DNA of 60,031 bases from an uncultured Erysipelotrichaceae bacterium. Lineage in GTDB: Bacteria > Bacillota_I > Bacilli_A > RF39 > UBA660. This document shows, in pieces, positions 7,105-60,031 of the stretch. Where the stretch lies: the NCBI GenBank assembly GCA_902783895.1, contig CACZST010000025.1:1-60031 (forward strand), written 5' to 3'. Positions within the stretch are counted from its first letter, which is position 1, and every line of letters starts with the position of its first letter. The notes beneath the pieces are model-generated. The model had not been told where the DNA came from, searched no databases, and saw nothing but the letters and a program-made list of their open reading frames with translations. A program made the translations under genes and the position numbers.

Positions 7105-7464
7105 ATGGCTTATAGAAAATTAGGACGTGACAACAAACATAGAAGAAGTATGCTTGCCAATCTAACTAAAGATGTCATCAACAATGAAAGAATCGTTACA
7201 ACAGAGACAAGAGCTAAAGAAGTTCGTAAATTTGTTGATAAAATGGTTACATATGGTAAAGATGGCTCATTAGTCGCAAGAAGAAAAGCTTTAGCTTTCC
7301 TTCATAATGATAAAGCAACTGTTAGTAAAGTGTTTGATGAACTTGCGCCAAGATATGCCACTAGAAATGGTGGATATACAAGAATTTTAAAATTAGAAGA
7401 GCGTAGAGGCGACGATGCTTTAAGAGTTATTCTTGAATTAGTAAAGGAAGATGCTGCTAAATAG
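7105..7464 (+). CDS. rplQ: 50S ribosomal protein L17
   Basis: 119 aa. '[15 protein letters not shown]', '[16 protein letters not shown]' and '[13 protein letters not shown]' match L17. Confidence 0.96.
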
Positions 7465-7519
7465 TGTCTTTTTTTTTGACTTTTTTAATATGATGTGTTA
7501 ATTTATATTTGGTGGTAAT

Positions 7520-7747
7520 ATGACTTATGAGGATTTACAATATATAAGGATTAATTGTTTTAATTTTAAAAATATTTCTGAATTTAATAATTATTATGAT
7601 AATTTAGATATTAAAAAGGAAGATGCTTTAAAAGTAATAAAATTACTTAATGATGATATTAATGTTTTATCTATGATTGATTATAATTATTTTTTTGATA
7701 AGATTAAATTAATAATTGATGAAATTAATATATTAGAAAATTATTAA
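7520..7747 (+). CDS. Hypothetical small acidic protein (75 aa), first gene of AT-rich cassette
   Basis: Open frame with a GGTGG SD 5 nt upstream of the ATG. I recognise no motif. The coding sequence is extremely AT-rich. Confidence 0.4.
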   Translation: MTYEDLQYIRINCFNFKNISEFNNYYDNLDIKKEDALKVIKLLNDDINVLSMIDYNYFFDKIKLIIDEINILENY

Positions 7748-7761
7748 TTTCGTTTATTTTG

Positions 7762-7770
7762 TGTTATAAT
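7762..7770 (+). promoter_or_regulatory. Extended -10 promoter element (TGtTATAAT) immediately upstream of ORF 7778
   Basis: TGTTATAAT lies at 7762-7770. The ATG at 7778 is 7 nt past the hexamer, so the transcript may be leaderless or use an internal start. Confidence 0.35.
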
Positions 7771-7777
7771 ACTTTAA

Positions 7778-8755
7778 ATGGAGATGATTTATGTGTATGA
7801 AAGAATAATGACAGATAAAGTGTTTAAAGATTTTTCTGATTATATAGCTGATTGTGATTTTAATGAGTTTATTGAAAAAATTGGGAAACATGATGTTAGT
7901 GACGAAGACGTTTTTAGATTAATTGATAATCTTGATAATCTTCTTTCTGAATTTGGTGATGCATTGGATGAGCCAGAGAAAGAACTTATGAGTAAGAAAA
8001 TCGAATTACTTAAGGGATATTTTGTGGATGTAGTTGAAGTTCCGGAGGAAGAAAAACATATTTTCTTTTCTGAGTCATTTGAAGGTGATTTAGGTAAATT
8101 ATTAGATGAGAAATCAGTTGATGATATAATTGACTGTCTAAATAATTTAAAAAATGTAGATGGTAATAGTAATGATGTTGAAAAGAAAGTATTTAGTAGA
8201 AATAATAAGAGTTTTAAATATATTATAGAGCTTAAGCCAACCAAAGGTAATCATCAAATTAGAATATATTATTTAAATGTTTCACCTGATGTTTATTATG
8301 TTTTCGATATAGAAAAAAAGAAAGATAATATGCCTAAAAGCATTAAAAAAACAATTACTGATAAGGCTGGTAATATAAAAAATTCTAATACATATAAATC
8401 TATTAAAAATTCATTTGAGAATAATGATAATTTAAAAAAAGAATATATTGCGGAAGGTGATTCCAGATATAAAAATATTGATTCCCTTTTAAATATATAT
8501 AAGAAAACTGGCAAGAAGCAGTTTGCCCTTAATGTGTATAAGAATCAAAAATTACTTGATTTTTGTATGATTTTAACTAAGGATAATATTACTATTAATG
8601 ATTATTGCGAGCTTAGTGATTTATTAGAGAATATGACTACCGAAGAAATTGAGATAATTAAGAGTATTTCTAAGATTATTTCTGATCCTTTTGTTCAAGA
8701 TTTTATAGAAGAAAAAATAAATAATGAACAATGTAGTGTTTCTAAAGTAATTTAA
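7778..8755 (+). CDS. Hypothetical 325-aa protein with central HigB/Gp49 (RelE/ParE-fold)-like core
   Basis: Residues ~94-197 read 'IFFSESFEGDLGKLL...KYIIELKPTKGNHQIRIYYLNVSPDVYYVFDIEKKKDNMPKSIKKTITDKA'. This parallels the toxin pattern ELR..yRI.Y...v.l.h.F.KKtqktP..eI..A. An acidic N-terminal arm and a ~125-aa C-terminal extension flank it. The start codon is uncertain. Confidence 0.5.
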   Translation: MEMIYVYERIMTDKVFKDFSDYIADCDFNEFIEKIGKHDVSDEDVFRLIDNLDNLLSEFGDALDEPEKELMSKKIELLKGYFVDVVEVPEEEKHIFFSESFEGDLGKLLDEKSVDDIIDCLNNLKNVDGNSNDVEKKVFSRNNKSFKYIIELKPTKGNHQIRIYYLNVSPDVYYVFDIEKKKDNMPKSIKKTITDKAGNIKNSNTYKSIKNSFENNDNLKKEYIAEGDSRYKNIDSLLNIYKKTGKKQFALNVYKNQKLLDFCMILTKDNITINDYCELSDLLENMTTEEIEIIKSISKIISDPFVQDFIEEKINNEQCSVSKVI

Positions 8756-8769
8756 AAGAAGGTGATTAT

Positions 8770-9360
8770 GTGGAAAAAGATATTTTATTTACAACTTCGA
8801 TAACTGAATTTCCAGATGTTATTAATGATATTGAGGAGATAGATCCTAAATATTATGATGATATAAAAAGATGTTTTAAATATATTATTAATAACTATTT
8901 ATCTCTTAGAGAATTTACTGAATTTAAGGCTGATAAAATTCGTGTTTATGTTAATAAGAATGATGATAATATTTTTATTGTAGGAATTAATTGTGTTGAT
9001 AACAAAAACAGTTTAAAAAAAGAAATAGAAATTATAAAAAGGTTTAAAAAATTTAATTTTAATAATAAGTTAGATATTAATGATGAGTTAATAATATATA
9101 ATCAGTTGGTTAAAAAATATATTTATTATTATATTAATAAAAAAAGTAATGATAATTTAAAATTACGTATGTTAATGAAAAATTTAAGTAGTTTAAATAC
9201 TAATGCAGTTTATGAAAATCTTGTAAATGCTGATGAAGTAGTTTTGAAAAAAGTAAATCGTTTGATTGAAAATTTTAACAATCAAAATATACGTGATTTA
9301 ATAGATAAAAAATATTTAAAGAAAAAAAAGAATAAAGGTCATAAAAGTAATAGTTTATAA
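8770..9360 (+). CDS. Hypothetical 196-aa protein with N-terminal HigB/Gp49-like core and basic tail
   Basis: GTG start after an AAGGTGA SD. Residues ~4-92 read 'ILFTTS..EF...EFKADKIRVYVNKNDDNIFIVGINCVDNKNSLKKEIEIIKRF', a second copy of the same pattern. The tail is 'KKYLKKKKNKGHK'. Confidence 0.5.
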   Translation: MEKDILFTTSITEFPDVINDIEEIDPKYYDDIKRCFKYIINNYLSLREFTEFKADKIRVYVNKNDDNIFIVGINCVDNKNSLKKEIEIIKRFKKFNFNNKLDINDELIIYNQLVKKYIYYYINKKSNDNLKLRMLMKNLSSLNTNAVYENLVNADEVVLKKVNRLIENFNNQNIRDLIDKKYLKKKKNKGHKSNSL

Positions 9361-9413
9361 AATTATTTACTTTTTTTTTGCGGTGATATATAATTATTTA
9401 AGAGGATGATATT

Positions 9414-10166
9414 ATGAAGGCATTAATTACAGGAGCAGGATCAGGTATAGGAGCGGATATTGCTAGAGTTTTAGTAGATGAGGGATATGAAGTTATTTTA
9501 GTATCAAAAGGTAAAGTTAAACTAGAAAAAGTAGCTAAGGAGCTTGGAGAAAAGGCAACCGCTATTCCTATGGATATTTCTAGTACTTATAATTGTATGG
9601 ATTTATATAATCAAGTTAAGAAGGAAAATATTGATATATTAATCAATTGTGCAGGATTTGGTCTTTTCGGGGAATTTACTGATACTAATATTGATAAAGA
9701 GCTTGATATGATTGATTTAAATATTAAAGCCTTACATACTTTAACTAAACTATTTTTAAAAGATTTTGTTAGAAAAGATCAAGGTTATATTTTAAATGTT
9801 GCATCTTGTGCAGGTTTTATGCCAGGACCTTTGATGGCAACTTATTATGCGACTAAAAATTATGTAGTTAGTTTAACTAAGGCAATTTCTTTTGAACTAA
9901 AGAAAAATGGTAGTAATGTTTCTATTAGTGCTTTATGTCCAGGGCCAGTTGATACTAACTTTAATAAGATAGCAAAGGTTGAATTTTCTCTTAAAGGATT
10001 AAACAGTATGGATGTAGCTAAGTATGCGGTTCAAAAGATGTTTGATGAGAAATTAATTATAATACCAGGCTTTAAAATGAAGTCACTTATTAATTTGAGT
10101 AAGTTTGTACCTACTTCAATGCTTTTAAACATTGTTTATAATGGACAAAGGAGTAAATCTAAGTGA
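9414..10166 (+). CDS. Short-chain dehydrogenase/reductase (SDR) family oxidoreductase
   Basis: 250 aa. 'TGAGSGIG' is the cofactor motif, 'NCAG' is present, and the catalytic 'YYATK' (YxxxK) follows 'NVAS'. Confidence 0.85.
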   Translation: MKALITGAGSGIGADIARVLVDEGYEVILVSKGKVKLEKVAKELGEKATAIPMDISSTYNCMDLYNQVKKENIDILINCAGFGLFGEFTDTNIDKELDMIDLNIKALHTLTKLFLKDFVRKDQGYILNVASCAGFMPGPLMATYYATKNYVVSLTKAISFELKKNGSNVSISALCPGPVDTNFNKIAKVEFSLKGLNSMDVAKYAVQKMFDEKLIIIPGFKMKSLINLSKFVPTSMLLNIVYNGQRSKSK

Positions 10167-10212: not shown

Positions 10213-11397
10213 ATGAAAAAAATATTAGATTATGATGAAATGAAAGAACTTTTGGATTCACTTGATAATAATATTATAAAAAAAGAAGAACCTATCGGTT
10301 TTTCTAATTTTGGTTATCCAATTGATCATTATACATATGGTAATGGTGAATATCATATGATTATAACTTCTGGTACTCATTCATCTGAACTTATAACTAA
10401 TATCTTTGTTATTAGATTTATGGAAAAACTTTCATTAAAAGAAATATATATTGATCCTAATAAATATACAATTCATTTTATTCCTTTTGTTAATCCAGAG
10501 GGAACAATTATTGTTACTAAAGCAATAAGATCATTAATTGGAAAAAATATTTCATGGGATGCTGAACAAACATATTGTTTAACATTTTATAGGAACTGTA
10601 GAATAGAAGGTATATATTCTAATTCTTTGGAAAACCATGATGTTAAACTTGAACAGTGGATGTTTAGAAGAGCAACTCCTGATATTTTAGGTGAGGAACA
10701 TAAAGATTTAAAAATGAGTTTGAAGAAGTTATATGAAGATAATGATTTACCAATTGGATCAATGATTAATTGGTCAAGTAATGGTAGAGGTGTTGATTTA
10801 AATAGTAATTTAGAAAGTAGTACGTTTATTGACAGAATTGAAAAGGGAGAGGCTATTTATTCTAAATTACATTTAGGAAATATTAGAAGAGATAAATTAG
10901 GTCCATTAGGTTGTCCTTATTATGAAAAAAAGGGAGATATTGAACCAGAAAATAAAGCTTTATATAATTTTTATGAAAGTATTAAAAATAATCATAAATT
11001 AATTGGTTCACTTATATATCATAGCTGCGGGGATATTATTATGTATAATGATGATTTAACATTTAAAAATCCTTGGCAAGAAGATTTTGATTCTAAGGAT
11101 ACTTTTAAAAATAAAATAGTTGCGGAAAAATATGCGAGTATTACAGGGTATAAACTGGATAAAAGTGAAATTTATACAACAGTTGATGCTAAATTAAAAA
11201 CTTTATATCCAGTTAGTTTATTAATTGAACTTGGAAGTGTTACTGGAACGCCACTTTCACAATTTTTAGATTTAGATATTCCTGGTAGTGGTGTGGGATT
11301 TAAAAATGTTTATACAAATATAATAGAAAAAAATAGTAAAGCAATTTTAGAAGTTTTACCTTTAATGGCAGATATTTACGAGGTAAATTATGAGTAA
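10213..11397 (+). CDS. M14-family zinc carboxypeptidase-like protein (gamma-D-glutamyl-diamino-acid peptidase-like)
   Basis: 394 aa. 'SGTHSSE' fits the HxxE zinc motif. 'FVNPEG' is present. 'IYHSCGDIIMY' fits the third zinc-ligand His block of M14 peptidases. No signal peptide. Confidence 0.65.
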   Translation: MKKILDYDEMKELLDSLDNNIIKKEEPIGFSNFGYPIDHYTYGNGEYHMIITSGTHSSELITNIFVIRFMEKLSLKEIYIDPNKYTIHFIPFVNPEGTIIVTKAIRSLIGKNISWDAEQTYCLTFYRNCRIEGIYSNSLENHDVKLEQWMFRRATPDILGEEHKDLKMSLKKLYEDNDLPIGSMINWSSNGRGVDLNSNLESSTFIDRIEKGEAIYSKLHLGNIRRDKLGPLGCPYYEKKGDIEPENKALYNFYESIKNNHKLIGSLIYHSCGDIIMYNDDLTFKNPWQEDFDSKDTFKNKIVAEKYASITGYKLDKSEIYTTVDAKLKTLYPVSLLIELGSVTGTPLSQFLDLDIPGSGVGFKNVYTNIIEKNSKAILEVLPLMADIYEVNYE

Positions 11398-11980
11398 ACA
11401 ACTTTTTACTATTGATGTTACTAATAGGATATTAGAAATATATGAAGATGATATTTTAATAAAAAAAATAGATAATGTTTGGATAGGTAAAAATGGATAT
11501 GCTTTAGAATCTGACATGGTTGAGGGTAATGAGAAGACGCCACTGGGCTTTTATAATTTAGGTGTGGCTTTTGGAATGCATGATTTAAATATTTCTTATC
11601 CTTATTTTAAAATAGAGGATAATGATTATTGGGTAGATGATTCTAATTCAAAACATTATAATTATATGGTTAGAATTGGAAAAGAAATAGAAGATTTTGG
11701 TTATCCTTATATAATATCTTTAAATGAAAAGGATTTTACTTCAGCAGAACATTTAATTACATTTAAAAAGCAATATGAGTACGCTGTATTTATTGAGTAT
11801 AATTGTTTTAATCAAATTGAAAATGGTATTGGAAATAATAAGAGTTCAGCAATATTTCTTCATTGTCATGGGGATAAAGGTTATACTGGTGGTTGTGTTG
11901 CTGTTTCTAGAGAAGATATGAAATATATTTTGAATATTTTAGATAAAAATAAAAATCCACAAATACTTATAAAAAAATAA
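11390..11980 (+). CDS. L,D-transpeptidase/YkuD-fold catalytic domain protein
   Basis: 196 aa. 'SAIFLHCHGDKGYTGGCVAVSRED' fits the YkuD His...(S/T)xGC active-site pattern. It overlaps the M14 gene by 8 nt. Confidence 0.6.
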   Translation: MSKQLFTIDVTNRILEIYEDDILIKKIDNVWIGKNGYALESDMVEGNEKTPLGFYNLGVAFGMHDLNISYPYFKIEDNDYWVDDSNSKHYNYMVRIGKEIEDFGYPYIISLNEKDFTSAEHLITFKKQYEYAVFIEYNCFNQIENGIGNNKSSAIFLHCHGDKGYTGGCVAVSREDMKYILNILDKNKNPQILIKK

Positions 11981-12019: not shown

Positions 12020-12051
12020 GTTATATAATAGGAGATAAAGTTGGTGGTATT

Positions 12052-12837
12052 ATGGAATCATTGAAATTTAAAAATGTTAAATACAAAAATGTTTTAAATG
12101 ATTTAAGTTTTAAGGTGGAAAAAAATGATTTTTTAACAGTAATTGGCTTAAATGGAAGTGGAAAAAGTACAATTGTTAAAATACTTATGGGACTTTTAGA
12201 ATTTCAAGGAATGATTTTGATTGATGATATTGCGCTTAATGATAACACATTAAATGTTACTGATAGAAAAATAAGTTTTGCGGTTAATGATTTGGATGAG
12301 CTTATTTTAGCGGAAACTGTGTTTGACGAATTAGCTTTTCCTTTAGAAAATTTAGGAAAAGTACCTGCACATATAAATAAATTAGTACATGAAGTTGCTG
12401 AAAGATTACAGATTGAAAATTTACTTTATAAAAAACCTTTAGAGCTTAATTTTGAAGAGAAAAAAATTGTATCTTTTGCAGCATCTATTATTTCAAAACC
12501 AGATATACTGGTACTTGATAATATAATTGAGGGACTTAGTTATAATAATAGAAAAAAAATTATTGATATATTATTAGAATATAAAGATAAAATTACAATT
12601 GTTAATTTTACTACGAATTCTGAAGAGAGTTTACTAGGTAATAAAGTTGCAATTTTAGATAAAGGAAAAATTGTTTGTTTAAAAAAATTAAACGATTTTT
12701 ATAAGGAAACAGATGAAATTTCAAAATATATAGAATTACCTTTTTCTGTTGATTTATCAAATAGATTAAAGTTTTACGATTTAACGGATAAATTATATTT
12801 TGATTTAGAAAAATTGGTGAATGATTTATGGAAGTAA
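12052..12837 (+). CDS. ecfA1: ECF transporter ATPase component A1, with degenerate catalytic motifs
   Basis: 261 aa. Walker A 'GLNGSGKST' is intact. The signature position reads 'LNFEEKK', Walker B reads 'LVLDN' (no Glu), and the H-loop position reads 'NFTTNSEE'. It lies in the conserved ecfA-ecfA'-ecfT-truA context. Confidence 0.85.
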   Translation: MESLKFKNVKYKNVLNDLSFKVEKNDFLTVIGLNGSGKSTIVKILMGLLEFQGMILIDDIALNDNTLNVTDRKISFAVNDLDELILAETVFDELAFPLENLGKVPAHINKLVHEVAERLQIENLLYKKPLELNFEEKKIVSFAASIISKPDILVLDNIIEGLSYNNRKKIIDILLEYKDKITIVNFTTNSEESLLGNKVAILDKGKIVCLKKLNDFYKETDEISKYIELPFSVDLSNRLKFYDLTDKLYFDLEKLVNDLWK

Positions 12838-24964: not shown

Positions 24965-25031
24965 TTAATTTTTCATTTTTTTATCATATTTCTATATGTT
25001 ATTTATGTTATAATTATTGTAGGTGAAATAT

Positions 25032-25961
25032 ATGAAGAGTAAGATATTTAAATCTTTAGATGAACAAATTGAAATTTTAAGATCTAAAGGACTAGTTGTT
25101 TCTGATGAGAAGAGGACTCGAAATATTTTATTTAGAGAGAATTATTTTTTTATTAGTGGATATAGACAATTATTTATGAAGCCTAATGAGAAAGATCGTT
25201 TTTTCCCTGGGACAACATTTGAGGAACTTTATGCAACTTTTGTTTTTGATAGACAAATAAGAAATACATTTTTTAAAAATATTTTAATTGTTGAAAATAA
25301 TATTAAATCAATTATGAGTTATCAACTATCTAAAAAATACGGTTTTAAGGAAAAAGATTATTTGAATCCAGATAACTATACTGAAGATAATTTACAATCA
25401 AGGCAGGTAAGGGATGTTTTAGATAAAGTTAAGAGACAAATAAGAGTTAATGGACGTAAGCATTCAGCAACAATGCATTATATTAACAATTATGGTTATA
25501 TTCCTTTTTGGATATTGGTAAAGGTTTTATCTTTTGGTATTATGGCTGAATTTTATAATATTTTGAAATATGAGGATAAAAAAGATATTGCTGATTATTA
25601 TAATCTTGATGTTGAAACTATGGAGATAAATTTAAATCTACTTTCTAATTTTAGAAATGTTTGCGCTCATGAAGATATTTTATATGATCATCGTCTTCAA
25701 AGGTCTATTCCAGACTGTGAATATCATGAAATGTTAGAAATTCCTATGGAGGAAGATGAGTATATTTATGGTAAAAATGATTTATTTAGTTTGGTTATAA
25801 TTTTAAAACAAATGCTTACAAAAGAAGATTTTAAAAAGCTTATTAGAGAAATAAAAAATGAAGTTAATGAATTAGATGAAGTTGTGGATGTTGTTCCACT
25901 TGAAAAGATATTAGAGCGAATTGGTTTTCCATTTAATTGGAAAGATATCGCAAATTTATAA
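25032..25961 (+). CDS. Abi_2 (AbiD/AbiF-like) abortive-infection family protein
   Basis: 'LRSKGLVVSD...ENYFFISGY', 'FEELYATFVFDRQIRN' and 'FRNVCAHEDILYD' match the conserved Abi_2 blocks. ATG 25032 follows an AGGTGA SD. Confidence 0.75.
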   Translation: MKSKIFKSLDEQIEILRSKGLVVSDEKRTRNILFRENYFFISGYRQLFMKPNEKDRFFPGTTFEELYATFVFDRQIRNTFFKNILIVENNIKSIMSYQLSKKYGFKEKDYLNPDNYTEDNLQSRQVRDVLDKVKRQIRVNGRKHSATMHYINNYGYIPFWILVKVLSFGIMAEFYNILKYEDKKDIADYYNLDVETMEINLNLLSNFRNVCAHEDILYDHRLQRSIPDCEYHEMLEIPMEEDEYIYGKNDLFSLVIILKQMLTKEDFKKLIREIKNEVNELDEVVDVVPLEKILERIGFPFNWKDIANL

Positions 25962-33062: not shown

Positions 33063-33138
33063 TGGCAGGAGTGGCAGGATTTGAACCCACGACATTCGGT
33101 TTTGGAGACCGACGTTCTACCAACTGAACTACACTCCT
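33063..33138 (-). tRNA. trnW: tRNA-Trp (anticodon CCA)
   Basis: I folded the reverse complement AGGAGTG-TA-GTTC..GAAC-G-TCGGT-CTCCAAA-ACCGA-ATGTC-GTGGG-TTCAAAT-CCTGC-CACTCCT-G-CCA by hand. It gives a 76-nt cloverleaf with an encoded CCA end. Confidence 0.93.

Positions 33139-59658: not shown

Positions 59659-60031
<373 letters not shown>

Follow-up and report, generated by a model that had tools for sequence, protein, structure and literature searches.

What is the three-gene cassette that directly follows rplQ on contig CACZST010000025.1 (assembly GCA_902783895.1) of an uncultured Erysipelotrichaceae bacterium, and did it arrive there as a toxin-like or phage-defense module, as an earlier note on this DNA had proposed? 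The window examined in this study, meaning the whole stretch of DNA that was analyzed, is 60,031 nt long, and the cassette occupies positions 7520-9360 with all three open reading frames (ORFs) on the forward strand. The gene rplQ (7105-7464, stop codon TAG at 7462-7464) lies directly upstream. On the downstream side, a short-chain dehydrogenase gene (SDR, 9414-10166) comes first, those for an M14 peptidase and a YkuD L,D-transpeptidase come next, and ecfA starts at 12052. The three ORFs were confirmed where the earlier note had placed them, and the core motifs that it quoted are present in the sequence. The cassette contains the following features:

7520-7747, forward strand: orf75, encoding a 75-aa acidic helical protein (isoelectric point, pI, 4.3; 13.6% GC) behind the ribosome-binding site (RBS) GGTGG.
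7778-8755, forward strand: orf325, encoding a multidomain protein with an acidic four-helix N-terminal arm, a HigB/Gp49-like core and a helical tail (24.8% GC).
8048-8380, forward strand: the predicted RelE/ParE (BECR)-fold core of orf325, aa 91-201, as delimited by the secondary structure of an AlphaFold2 (AF2) model.
8770-9360, forward strand: orf196, encoding a 196-aa basic protein (pI 9.3; 17.9% GC), made up of a core (aa 3-90, nt 8776-9039) and, behind it, a helical basic tail that ends in poly-Lys.

The RelE/ParE fold of the orf325 core emerged from structure prediction on a family alignment. Single-sequence AF2 modeling of orf325 was unusable (predicted local distance difference test, pLDDT, of 48), while modeling on a 30-sequence alignment of the family described below gave a pLDDT of 71.9 and a predicted template modeling (TM) score of 0.58. 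In this model, a four-helix N-terminal arm (aa 13-82) is followed by the core and then by the helical tail. The core comprises beta1 (94-97), alpha1 (99-108), alpha2 (114-126), beta2 (150-152), beta3 (160-169), beta4 (172-181) and alpha3 (189-201), which is the RelE/ParE (BECR) topology, including the long alpha3 that is a hallmark of Gp49-like toxins (PMC9098466). When the model was compared to the PDB with Foldseek, RelE-superfamily toxins accounted for 10 of the 11 best matches. The matches included YoeB (7v6w; TM on target 0.67, probability 0.99), Thermus thermophilus RelE (2khe; 0.65, 0.95), Streptococcus pneumoniae HigB (6af3/6af4; 0.60, up to 0.99), Mycobacterium tuberculosis HigB1 (7nbu; 0.58, 0.95), Vibrio cholerae HigB2 (5jaa; 0.46, 0.80) and, at rank 8, Cami1 (8phj; 0.19, 0.66). 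In addition, hhalign placed the core profile in register with the HigB1 sequence (PDB 7AWK) over beta1-alpha1-alpha2 (E 0.0016). Considering the model with its Foldseek matches, the HigB1 alignment and a sub-threshold Pfam Gp49 match together, the likeness of orf325 to Gp49/HigB is beyond chance, and the modeling supports a RelE/ParE fold of Gp49/HigB flavor for its core. The suggestion that the 325-aa protein holds such a core is therefore well supported by structure, although the profile search was less favorable, since the gathering score for membership in PF05973 was not reached. The view that the cores are embedded in larger proteins also holds, with the orf325 core covering aa 91-201 of 325 in an architecture conserved across the family.

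The conservation of individual residues adds detail to this picture. Across the 30-sequence alignment, six residues (K153, Q160, R162, I163, K181 and K182) are invariant, with E151 and K187 nearly so. In the model, the Glu-x-Lys motif lies on beta2, the Arg on beta3, the Lys-Lys pair at the end of beta4 and K187 in the beta4-alpha3 loop. The proposed catalytic pocket of HigB-TAC consists of K58, E66, R68, N73, R77, K95, Q98 and K99, and alanine substitution of K58, R68, R77, K95 or K99 inhibits its toxicity (PMC9098466). Judged by motif and secondary-structure register rather than by superposition, E151/K153 would correspond to E66/R68, R162 to R77 and K181 to K95, and K99 would match K187 in the beta4-alpha3 loop; register was used for this second half of the domain because the HigB1 alignment covers the first half only.

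The orf325 protein belongs to a family that is missed by all profile databases and is restricted to little-known uncultured gut Bacilli with small genomes. Single-sequence searches with orf325 and orf196 recovered only same-species proteins among 5.8 billion clusters and 1.8 billion representatives. A family profile built from eight locus-derived sequences recovered 87 protein clusters (250-432 aa) from uncultured low-GC gut Bacilli, none of which carries a Pfam domain or a name in its source. No significant match to orf325 was found in Pfam, PADLOC, NCBIfam or PHROGs, and a Pfam SPO1_gp41 match is sub-threshold (E 0.0065) and not interpretable. The window protein is the most divergent member of the family (21-26% identity), whereas in the same genomes ribosomal protein L17 is 87-94% and the SDR approximately 73% identical to the window. 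More widely, L17 shares 74-94% identity with its counterparts in uncultured 'Bacilli/Tenericutes' metagenome-assembled genomes from the gut, including Candidatus Coprosoma. Strongly conserved short motifs mark the tails of most family members (alignments A2 and A5): an acidic segment ('VE.LFPSDEEL'), a basic patch ('KKVKRRTRGLGKKTIARN') and a helical domain at the terminus. The acidic segment and basic patch are missing from the window protein (8380-8755) and from the protein of sister species L005, and the conserved tail motifs have no match in Pfam or the PDB.

The interval from rplQ to the SDR gene (or ecfA) was compared across 80 species-level loci. It is highly variable, measuring only about 90-330 bp in approximately 18 loci and containing unrelated genes in others (YfhO, TPR, DUF1292 or an agr-like locus). 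A homologue of orf325 was found in seven loci (L005, L006, L007, L009, L010, L013 and L022), and in all but L013 it lies between rplQ and the SDR gene; further metagenomic family members that were looked up also occupy this interval. Other ORFs filling the gap in relatives have no detectable kinship to the orf325 family. In one subclade, the gene thus has a fixed and ancestral place at the rplQ-SDR junction, but many close relatives are without it. The junction is variable, yet it is not a defense island. The comparison also corrects the assumption that ecfA normally follows rplQ: in relatives SDR comes after rplQ and ecfA after SDR, and since the SDR, M14 peptidase and YkuD genes intervene, ecfA is not the immediate ancestral neighbor. 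In some close relatives (L011, 10422-17020; also L008 and L021), an agr-like quorum-sensing locus (encoding a LytTR response regulator, a GHKL kinase and AgrB) comes after rplQ, with hibernation factor HPF and SecA next; synteny in this clade therefore breaks where the rplQ operon ends.

Most relatives have, downstream of the family gene, a conserved gene in convergent orientation that encodes about 152-171 aa with an internal two-fold repeat (...ILNNP..L..LP...YD.DFIE.YYIIL.DEI.PYIP...), which could be the usual partner of the family. This gene has no Pfam match and is absent from the window. It was located on the reverse strand of the following loci:

L006, 3062-3574
L007, 11622-12134
L009, 7595-8071
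L010, 11809-12267
L013, 9234-9743
L022, 11572-12087
L085, 6186-6689
L088, 3393-3908
L089, 4311-4820

Both orf75 and orf196 were considered as possible kin of this two-repeat gene and of a 185-aa ORF in L005, and the comparisons showed no relation in either case.

The second core predicted by the earlier note, that of orf196, is supported to a moderate degree. The first approximately 90 residues of orf196 are collinear with the family core, and hhalign matched aa 3-73 to it with an E-value of 2.2e-4. A hidden Markov model (HMM) built without the window species scored orf196 at 15.7 bits, compared to 1.2 ± 1.9 for shuffled sequences, of which 1 in 3000 reached that score, and orf196 was the best scorer among about 50 AT-rich gap proteins of related genomes. 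It keeps the invariant F, D, E-F-K and R, while V-D replaces K-K (alignment A3) and about 15 aa are deleted between alpha2 and beta2. The tail resembles the family tail weakly (7.3 bits, reached by 14 of 3000 shuffles). No homologue outside the species and no Pfam Gp49 match were found for orf196, and its ratio of non-synonymous to synonymous polymorphism (pN/pS) is about 0.29, on only 12 differences. By these alignments, orf196 is a diverged paralogue of the family core with a basic tail.

For orf75, the clearest evidence comes from the surrounding DNA. The sequence after rplQ in the window aligns with that of L007, L010, L022, L087 and L088, and the ATG of orf75 coincides there with the start of their full-length family gene; the aligned elements are a hairpin and T-run over the rplQ stop, TTGACT, the RBS GGTGG and the start ATGAC. 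The family proteins begin M-T-D/E-E-E-I/V-K-A-Y and orf75 begins M-T-Y-E-D-L-Q-Y. In a collinear semi-global test against the N-terminal arms, orf75 reached a z of about 4, which was equaled by 2 of 1000 shuffles, and no homologue was found outside the species. With moderate confidence, orf75 is probably a free-standing copy of the acidic N-terminal arm of the family. Its acidity, claimed from the sequence earlier, was borne out (pI 4.3), and the arm of orf325 is similarly acidic (pI 4.2), in contrast to orf196 (pI 9.3). The charge pattern of the cassette resembles that of antitoxin/toxin pairs. Pfam and NCBIfam scans of all three proteins revealed no antitoxin domain, whether helix-turn-helix (HTH) or of another type, in agreement with the earlier observation that an HTH antitoxin is lacking.

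All three ORFs seem to derive from one unannotated clade-specific gene, in a layout of N / N-core-tail / core-tail. Because the family is fixed at the rplQ-SDR junction in the subclade and the upstream DNA is orthologous, the cassette is the product of duplication and fission, in place, of a gene already resident there and not an incoming module. No direct or inverted repeats flank it. Neither orf325 nor P0040, another family member, has relatives in the phage collection, and P0040 likewise has none in the plasmid or IMG/VR collections. The idea of an insertion, put forward in the earlier note, is not borne out by these comparisons.

The gene structure of the cassette is also documented by its start sites, its composition and its persistence within the species. 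Public gene calls begin orf325 at GTG 7793 to give 320 aa, and the 325-aa version is the longest ORF; GTG 7793 is probably the true start. Shine-Dalgarno-like sites precede all three genes (GGTGG before 7520, GGAG before GTG 7793 and AAGGTGA before GTG 8770), and orf196 starts 14 nt past the orf325 stop. The GC content of the cassette (21.1%) is the lowest among 1841-bp stretches of the 60-kb window, with 0.09% of such windows equally low; at this scale, the cassette is indeed the most AT-rich part of the window. Both orf75 and orf196 are intact in same-species contigs L001-L004, whose gene order stands for all 24 contigs read. Nucleotide divergence of the cassette is 1.6-2.0% between two of the three strains compared, with orf325 at 0.6% versus L003, while the flanking genes diverge by 0.1-0.5%. 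Within the species, pN/pS of orf325 is 0.11-0.32 (small counts). In comparisons of the window to L001 and L003, synonymous polymorphism (pS) is 0.023-0.050 in orf325 and orf196 versus 0-0.013 in flanking genes, and non-synonymous differences are likewise several-fold higher. The raised divergence of the cassette suggests a local recombination or diversity hot spot, although the counts are small. An antisense ORF of 134 codons (7840-8244, reverse strand) is nested in orf325 and would encode a Ser/Leu/Phe-rich product; most likely it shadows the Glu/Lys/Asp-rich sense frame and is not a gene, being kept in same-species contigs only because of the overlapping sense gene.

Signals at both ends of the cassette bear on how it is expressed:

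7438-7479, forward strand: terminator-like hairpin with a T-run, overlapping the rplQ stop; RNA fold -11.2 kcal/mol.
7476-7504, forward strand: promoter-like site, with -35 TTGACT (7476-7481), a 17-nt spacer, and TGt plus a weak -10 TAATTT (7499-7504).
9343-9379, forward strand: AT-rich terminator-like hairpin with a T9 run, overlapping the orf196 stop; the fold of 9331-9400 is -7.9 kcal/mol for the whole structure.
9366-9394, forward strand: promoter-like site of the SDR gene, TTTACT-17-TATAAT.

The hairpin and T-run at the rplQ stop are also present in relatives L005, L007 and L087, and a scan for G+C-rich consensus terminators did not flag the hairpin at 7438-7479. The -35 TTGACT and its spacing are kept before the family gene in L007, L022, L087 and L088 (alignment A6), where the -10 is TATAAA; in the window, the -10 is degenerate. 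The site at 7476-7504 is thus a putative promoter, and the cassette seems, from these elements, to be its own transcription unit with a conserved -35, bounded by the hairpin and T-run elements at about 7438-7479 and 9343-9379. The initiation regions of orf75 (TATATTTGGTGGTAATATG, 7504-7522) and ecfA (TAAAGTTGGTGGTATTATG, 12036-12054) share 84% identity over 19 nt, which may merely reflect a common strong RBS context.

Beyond the gene structure, family membership, fold, residue conservation, paralogy and fixed chromosomal position shown above, we infer a nuclease activity, its auto-inhibition and a biological role, and the reading that we put forward, tentatively and at somewhat short of even confidence, is that of a self-inhibited ribosome-dependent mRNA endonuclease with orf75 as an arm in trans and orf196 as an attenuated copy. 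In this proposal, the orf325 core would act like HigB, occupying the ribosomal A site and cleaving mRNA by means of the conserved Glu-x-Lys of beta2, the Arg of beta3 and the Lys-Lys at the end of beta4. The core would be restrained in cis by the acidic N-terminal arm, the tail or both, as in fused toxin-antitoxin proteins, and orf75 would provide the same arm in trans. Lacking the Lys-Lys pair, orf196 would be attenuated or inactive as a copy but would continue to bind the same partner, and the role of the whole could be a shutdown of translation triggered by stress or phage. A bolder version of this proposal, which we consider quite improbable, envisions a chromosomally fixed three-part HigB-like nuclease (inhibitory arm, nuclease and sensor/anchor tail) with its own promoter behind the ribosomal-protein/rpoA operon. 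In the window species it would have been split, by duplication and fission, into a trans arm (orf75), a cis-inhibited nuclease (orf325) and a dead competitor for the A site (orf196), a natural 'un-fusing' in which the antidote works by paralogue competition. No unexpected mechanism is yet indicated.

Several results weigh against the endonuclease proposal. The Foldseek E-values are weak (0.05-0.2), as is expected because the match involves one domain within a 325-residue query. The Pfam Gp49 profile (PF05973) gives orf325 a score of 13.9 bits, below its cutoff of 23.9 (E 0.056, aa 132-193), and any Gp49 match was found in only one of eight family members. Searches of PDB sequences with the family and core profiles returned nothing meaningful, and the HigB1 hhalign alignment is limited to the first half of the domain. 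For orf75, comparisons to the N-terminal arm by local Smith-Waterman, HMM and hhalign were not significant (hhalign E 0.056), and 1 of 35 unrelated window proteins beat orf75 in the semi-global test, which leaves the link statistically weak; because only the collinear test was significant and one control beat it, the link rests mainly on positional orthology. A search of PADLOC-DB 2.0 with the three proteins at E-values up to 1 gave no match. No antitoxin-type domain was revealed by the full-length family profile and tail profile against the PDB or by members and tails searched singly against Pfam, where the tail profile itself returned noise only. Additionally, inheritance of the gene is vertical, at a single locus, and it was not found on phages, plasmids or viral contigs, unlike most toxin-antitoxin (TA) and defense modules, and some Gp49-like proteins, such as HigB2 and HigB3 of M. 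tuberculosis, are non-toxic (PMC9098466).

There are several potential alternatives to this proposal. The existence of non-toxic Gp49-like proteins, together with the vertical inheritance, the absence from mobile-element collections and the lack of antitoxin and defense-database matches, would also suit a domesticated, non-toxic RelE-fold protein. Such a protein would bind ribosomes or RNA as a factor specific to the clade, for example in translation regulation or as an adaptor in quality control; its fold would be a binding module only, with orf75 and orf196 as accessory or redundant copies. The position after rplQ, which is fixed in every family-bearing locus except L013, and the extra domains with strongly conserved motifs in relatives (for example, LFPSDEEL and RGLGKKTIARN) point in the same direction. 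However, many close relatives lack the family, having after rplQ either the SDR gene, across a gap of about 90-330 bp, or unrelated genes; the family is therefore dispensable. It also evolves very fast (about 25% identity where L17 has 94% and the SDR 73%), with within-species divergence 3-10 times that of its neighbors, and its invariant positions are exactly those that are catalytic in HigB. On balance, we regard such a non-toxic factor as unlikely, though it deserves serious consideration.

It is somewhat less likely still that only orf325 is functional and that orf75 and orf196 are decaying by-products of the duplication, open but no longer selected. Their extreme AT content (13.6% and 17.9% GC versus 24.8% for orf325), their lack of homologues outside the species, the loss from orf196 of the invariant Lys-Lys and about 15 core residues, and the absence of a counterpart to either ORF in the closest sister species, L005, point that way. 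On the other hand, both ORFs are intact in the same-species contigs and have good Shine-Dalgarno sites, stop-free runs of 75 and 196 codons are unlikely in such AT-rich DNA without selection, and orf196 has a pN/pS of about 0.29, though on only 12 differences. The remaining alternative, which takes up the insertion proposed in the earlier note, is a classical, horizontally acquired type II HigBA-like TA or defense cassette inserted into the rplQ-ecfA junction. Although the RelE-fold cores, the small acidic ORF upstream, the lowest GC content of the window and the variability of the junction among relatives might suggest such an origin, we consider it very improbable: the upstream DNA and the gene position are orthologous with those of relatives, neither flanking repeats nor mobility genes were found, the searches gave no phage, plasmid or viral relatives, no DNA-binding antitoxin and no PADLOC match, and the proteins exceed classical toxins 2-3-fold in size.

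Other features of the window were recorded apart from the cassette. The M14 zinc carboxypeptidase and YkuD L,D-transpeptidase genes at 10213-11980, between the SDR gene and ecfA, imply peptidoglycan remodeling in a bacterium with relatives that public records often label 'Tenericutes'. A 312-aa protein (25023-25961, forward strand) has a strong Abi_2 match (PF07751, AbiD/AbiF-like abortive infection; E 8.6e-42) and is a separate candidate phage-defense gene; it came to notice because its N-terminus stood out among the controls of a test. A lone tRNA-Trp (CCA) lies at 33063-33138 on the reverse strand, and a 16S rRNA gene is truncated by the window edge, with its 5' end included (59659-60031, forward strand).

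RelE/HigB-fold nucleases are among the best-studied bacterial toxins, and the cataloguing of their multidomain versions is only recent. If orf325 is a nuclease, the family would represent a new architecture (acidic arm, HigB core and helical tail) among multidomain BECR toxins, as well as a rare vertically inherited case at a fixed site adjoining the ribosomal operon. If it is instead non-toxic, a toxin fold would have been recruited to another ribosome- or RNA-related task. In the nuclease case, the window species would offer a natural dissection of the domains into separate genes, in which neutralization in cis versus in trans is open to co-expression.

Among the known systems closest to the orf325 family are the Gp49-like HigB proteins (PF05973; S. 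pneumoniae HigB, 6AF3/6AF4; M. tuberculosis HigB1/HigB-TAC, 7AWK and 7NBU), with which the orf325 model shares the beta1-alpha1-alpha2-beta2-beta3-beta4 fold and the long alpha3. The N-terminal motif F-x-x-S/T ... G-x-P ... D/E-L ... P of the family aligns with HigB1, and its invariant E-x-K, R and K-K would fall at the E66/R68, R77 and K95 positions of HigB-TAC. Unlike these proteins, orf325 scores below the Pfam threshold, its domain lies between an acidic arm of about 90 aa and a tail of 125-200 aa across the family, and an insert of about 20 residues separates alpha2 and beta2. In addition, orf325 has no higA-type HTH gene or SecB-like chaperone, and its family is fixed at one chromosomal locus in one clade. 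Type II TA systems such as HigBA and RelBE pair a toxin of about 90-130 aa with an adjacent antitoxin of the HTH or ribbon-helix-helix (RHH) type; here, in contrast, the proteins have 325 and 196 aa, and no HTH or RHH is present in orf75, orf196 or the arms of orf325. Such systems also have a mobile, patchy spread, whereas the orf325 family sits at the rplQ-SDR junction in all family-bearing loci but L013.

Multidomain and fused BECR toxins have been documented, including 69 gp49-HTH fusions (Gerdes 2025, PMC11980606). Like these, orf325 holds a RelE-fold domain inside a larger polypeptide whose flanks possibly neutralize it in cis, but the flanks match no known antitoxin (HTH, RHH, YefM/Phd or MqsA). 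Because that survey started from Pfam families and Pfam is blind to the orf325 family, it would miss the family. Cami1, a CARF-RelE CRISPR ancillary ribosome-dependent RNase (8PHJ), likewise places a RelE-like domain within a polypeptide exceeding 300 aa, where another domain controls it; orf325 differs in having neither CARF (by Pfam) nor a CRISPR context, and only the RelE part aligns. With fused toxin-antitoxin proteins of the CapRel(SJ46) type, whose toxin fold is different (RelA/SpoT-like), the orf325 family would share the concept alone, that of a toxin domain auto-inhibited by an adjoining and possibly trigger-sensing domain.

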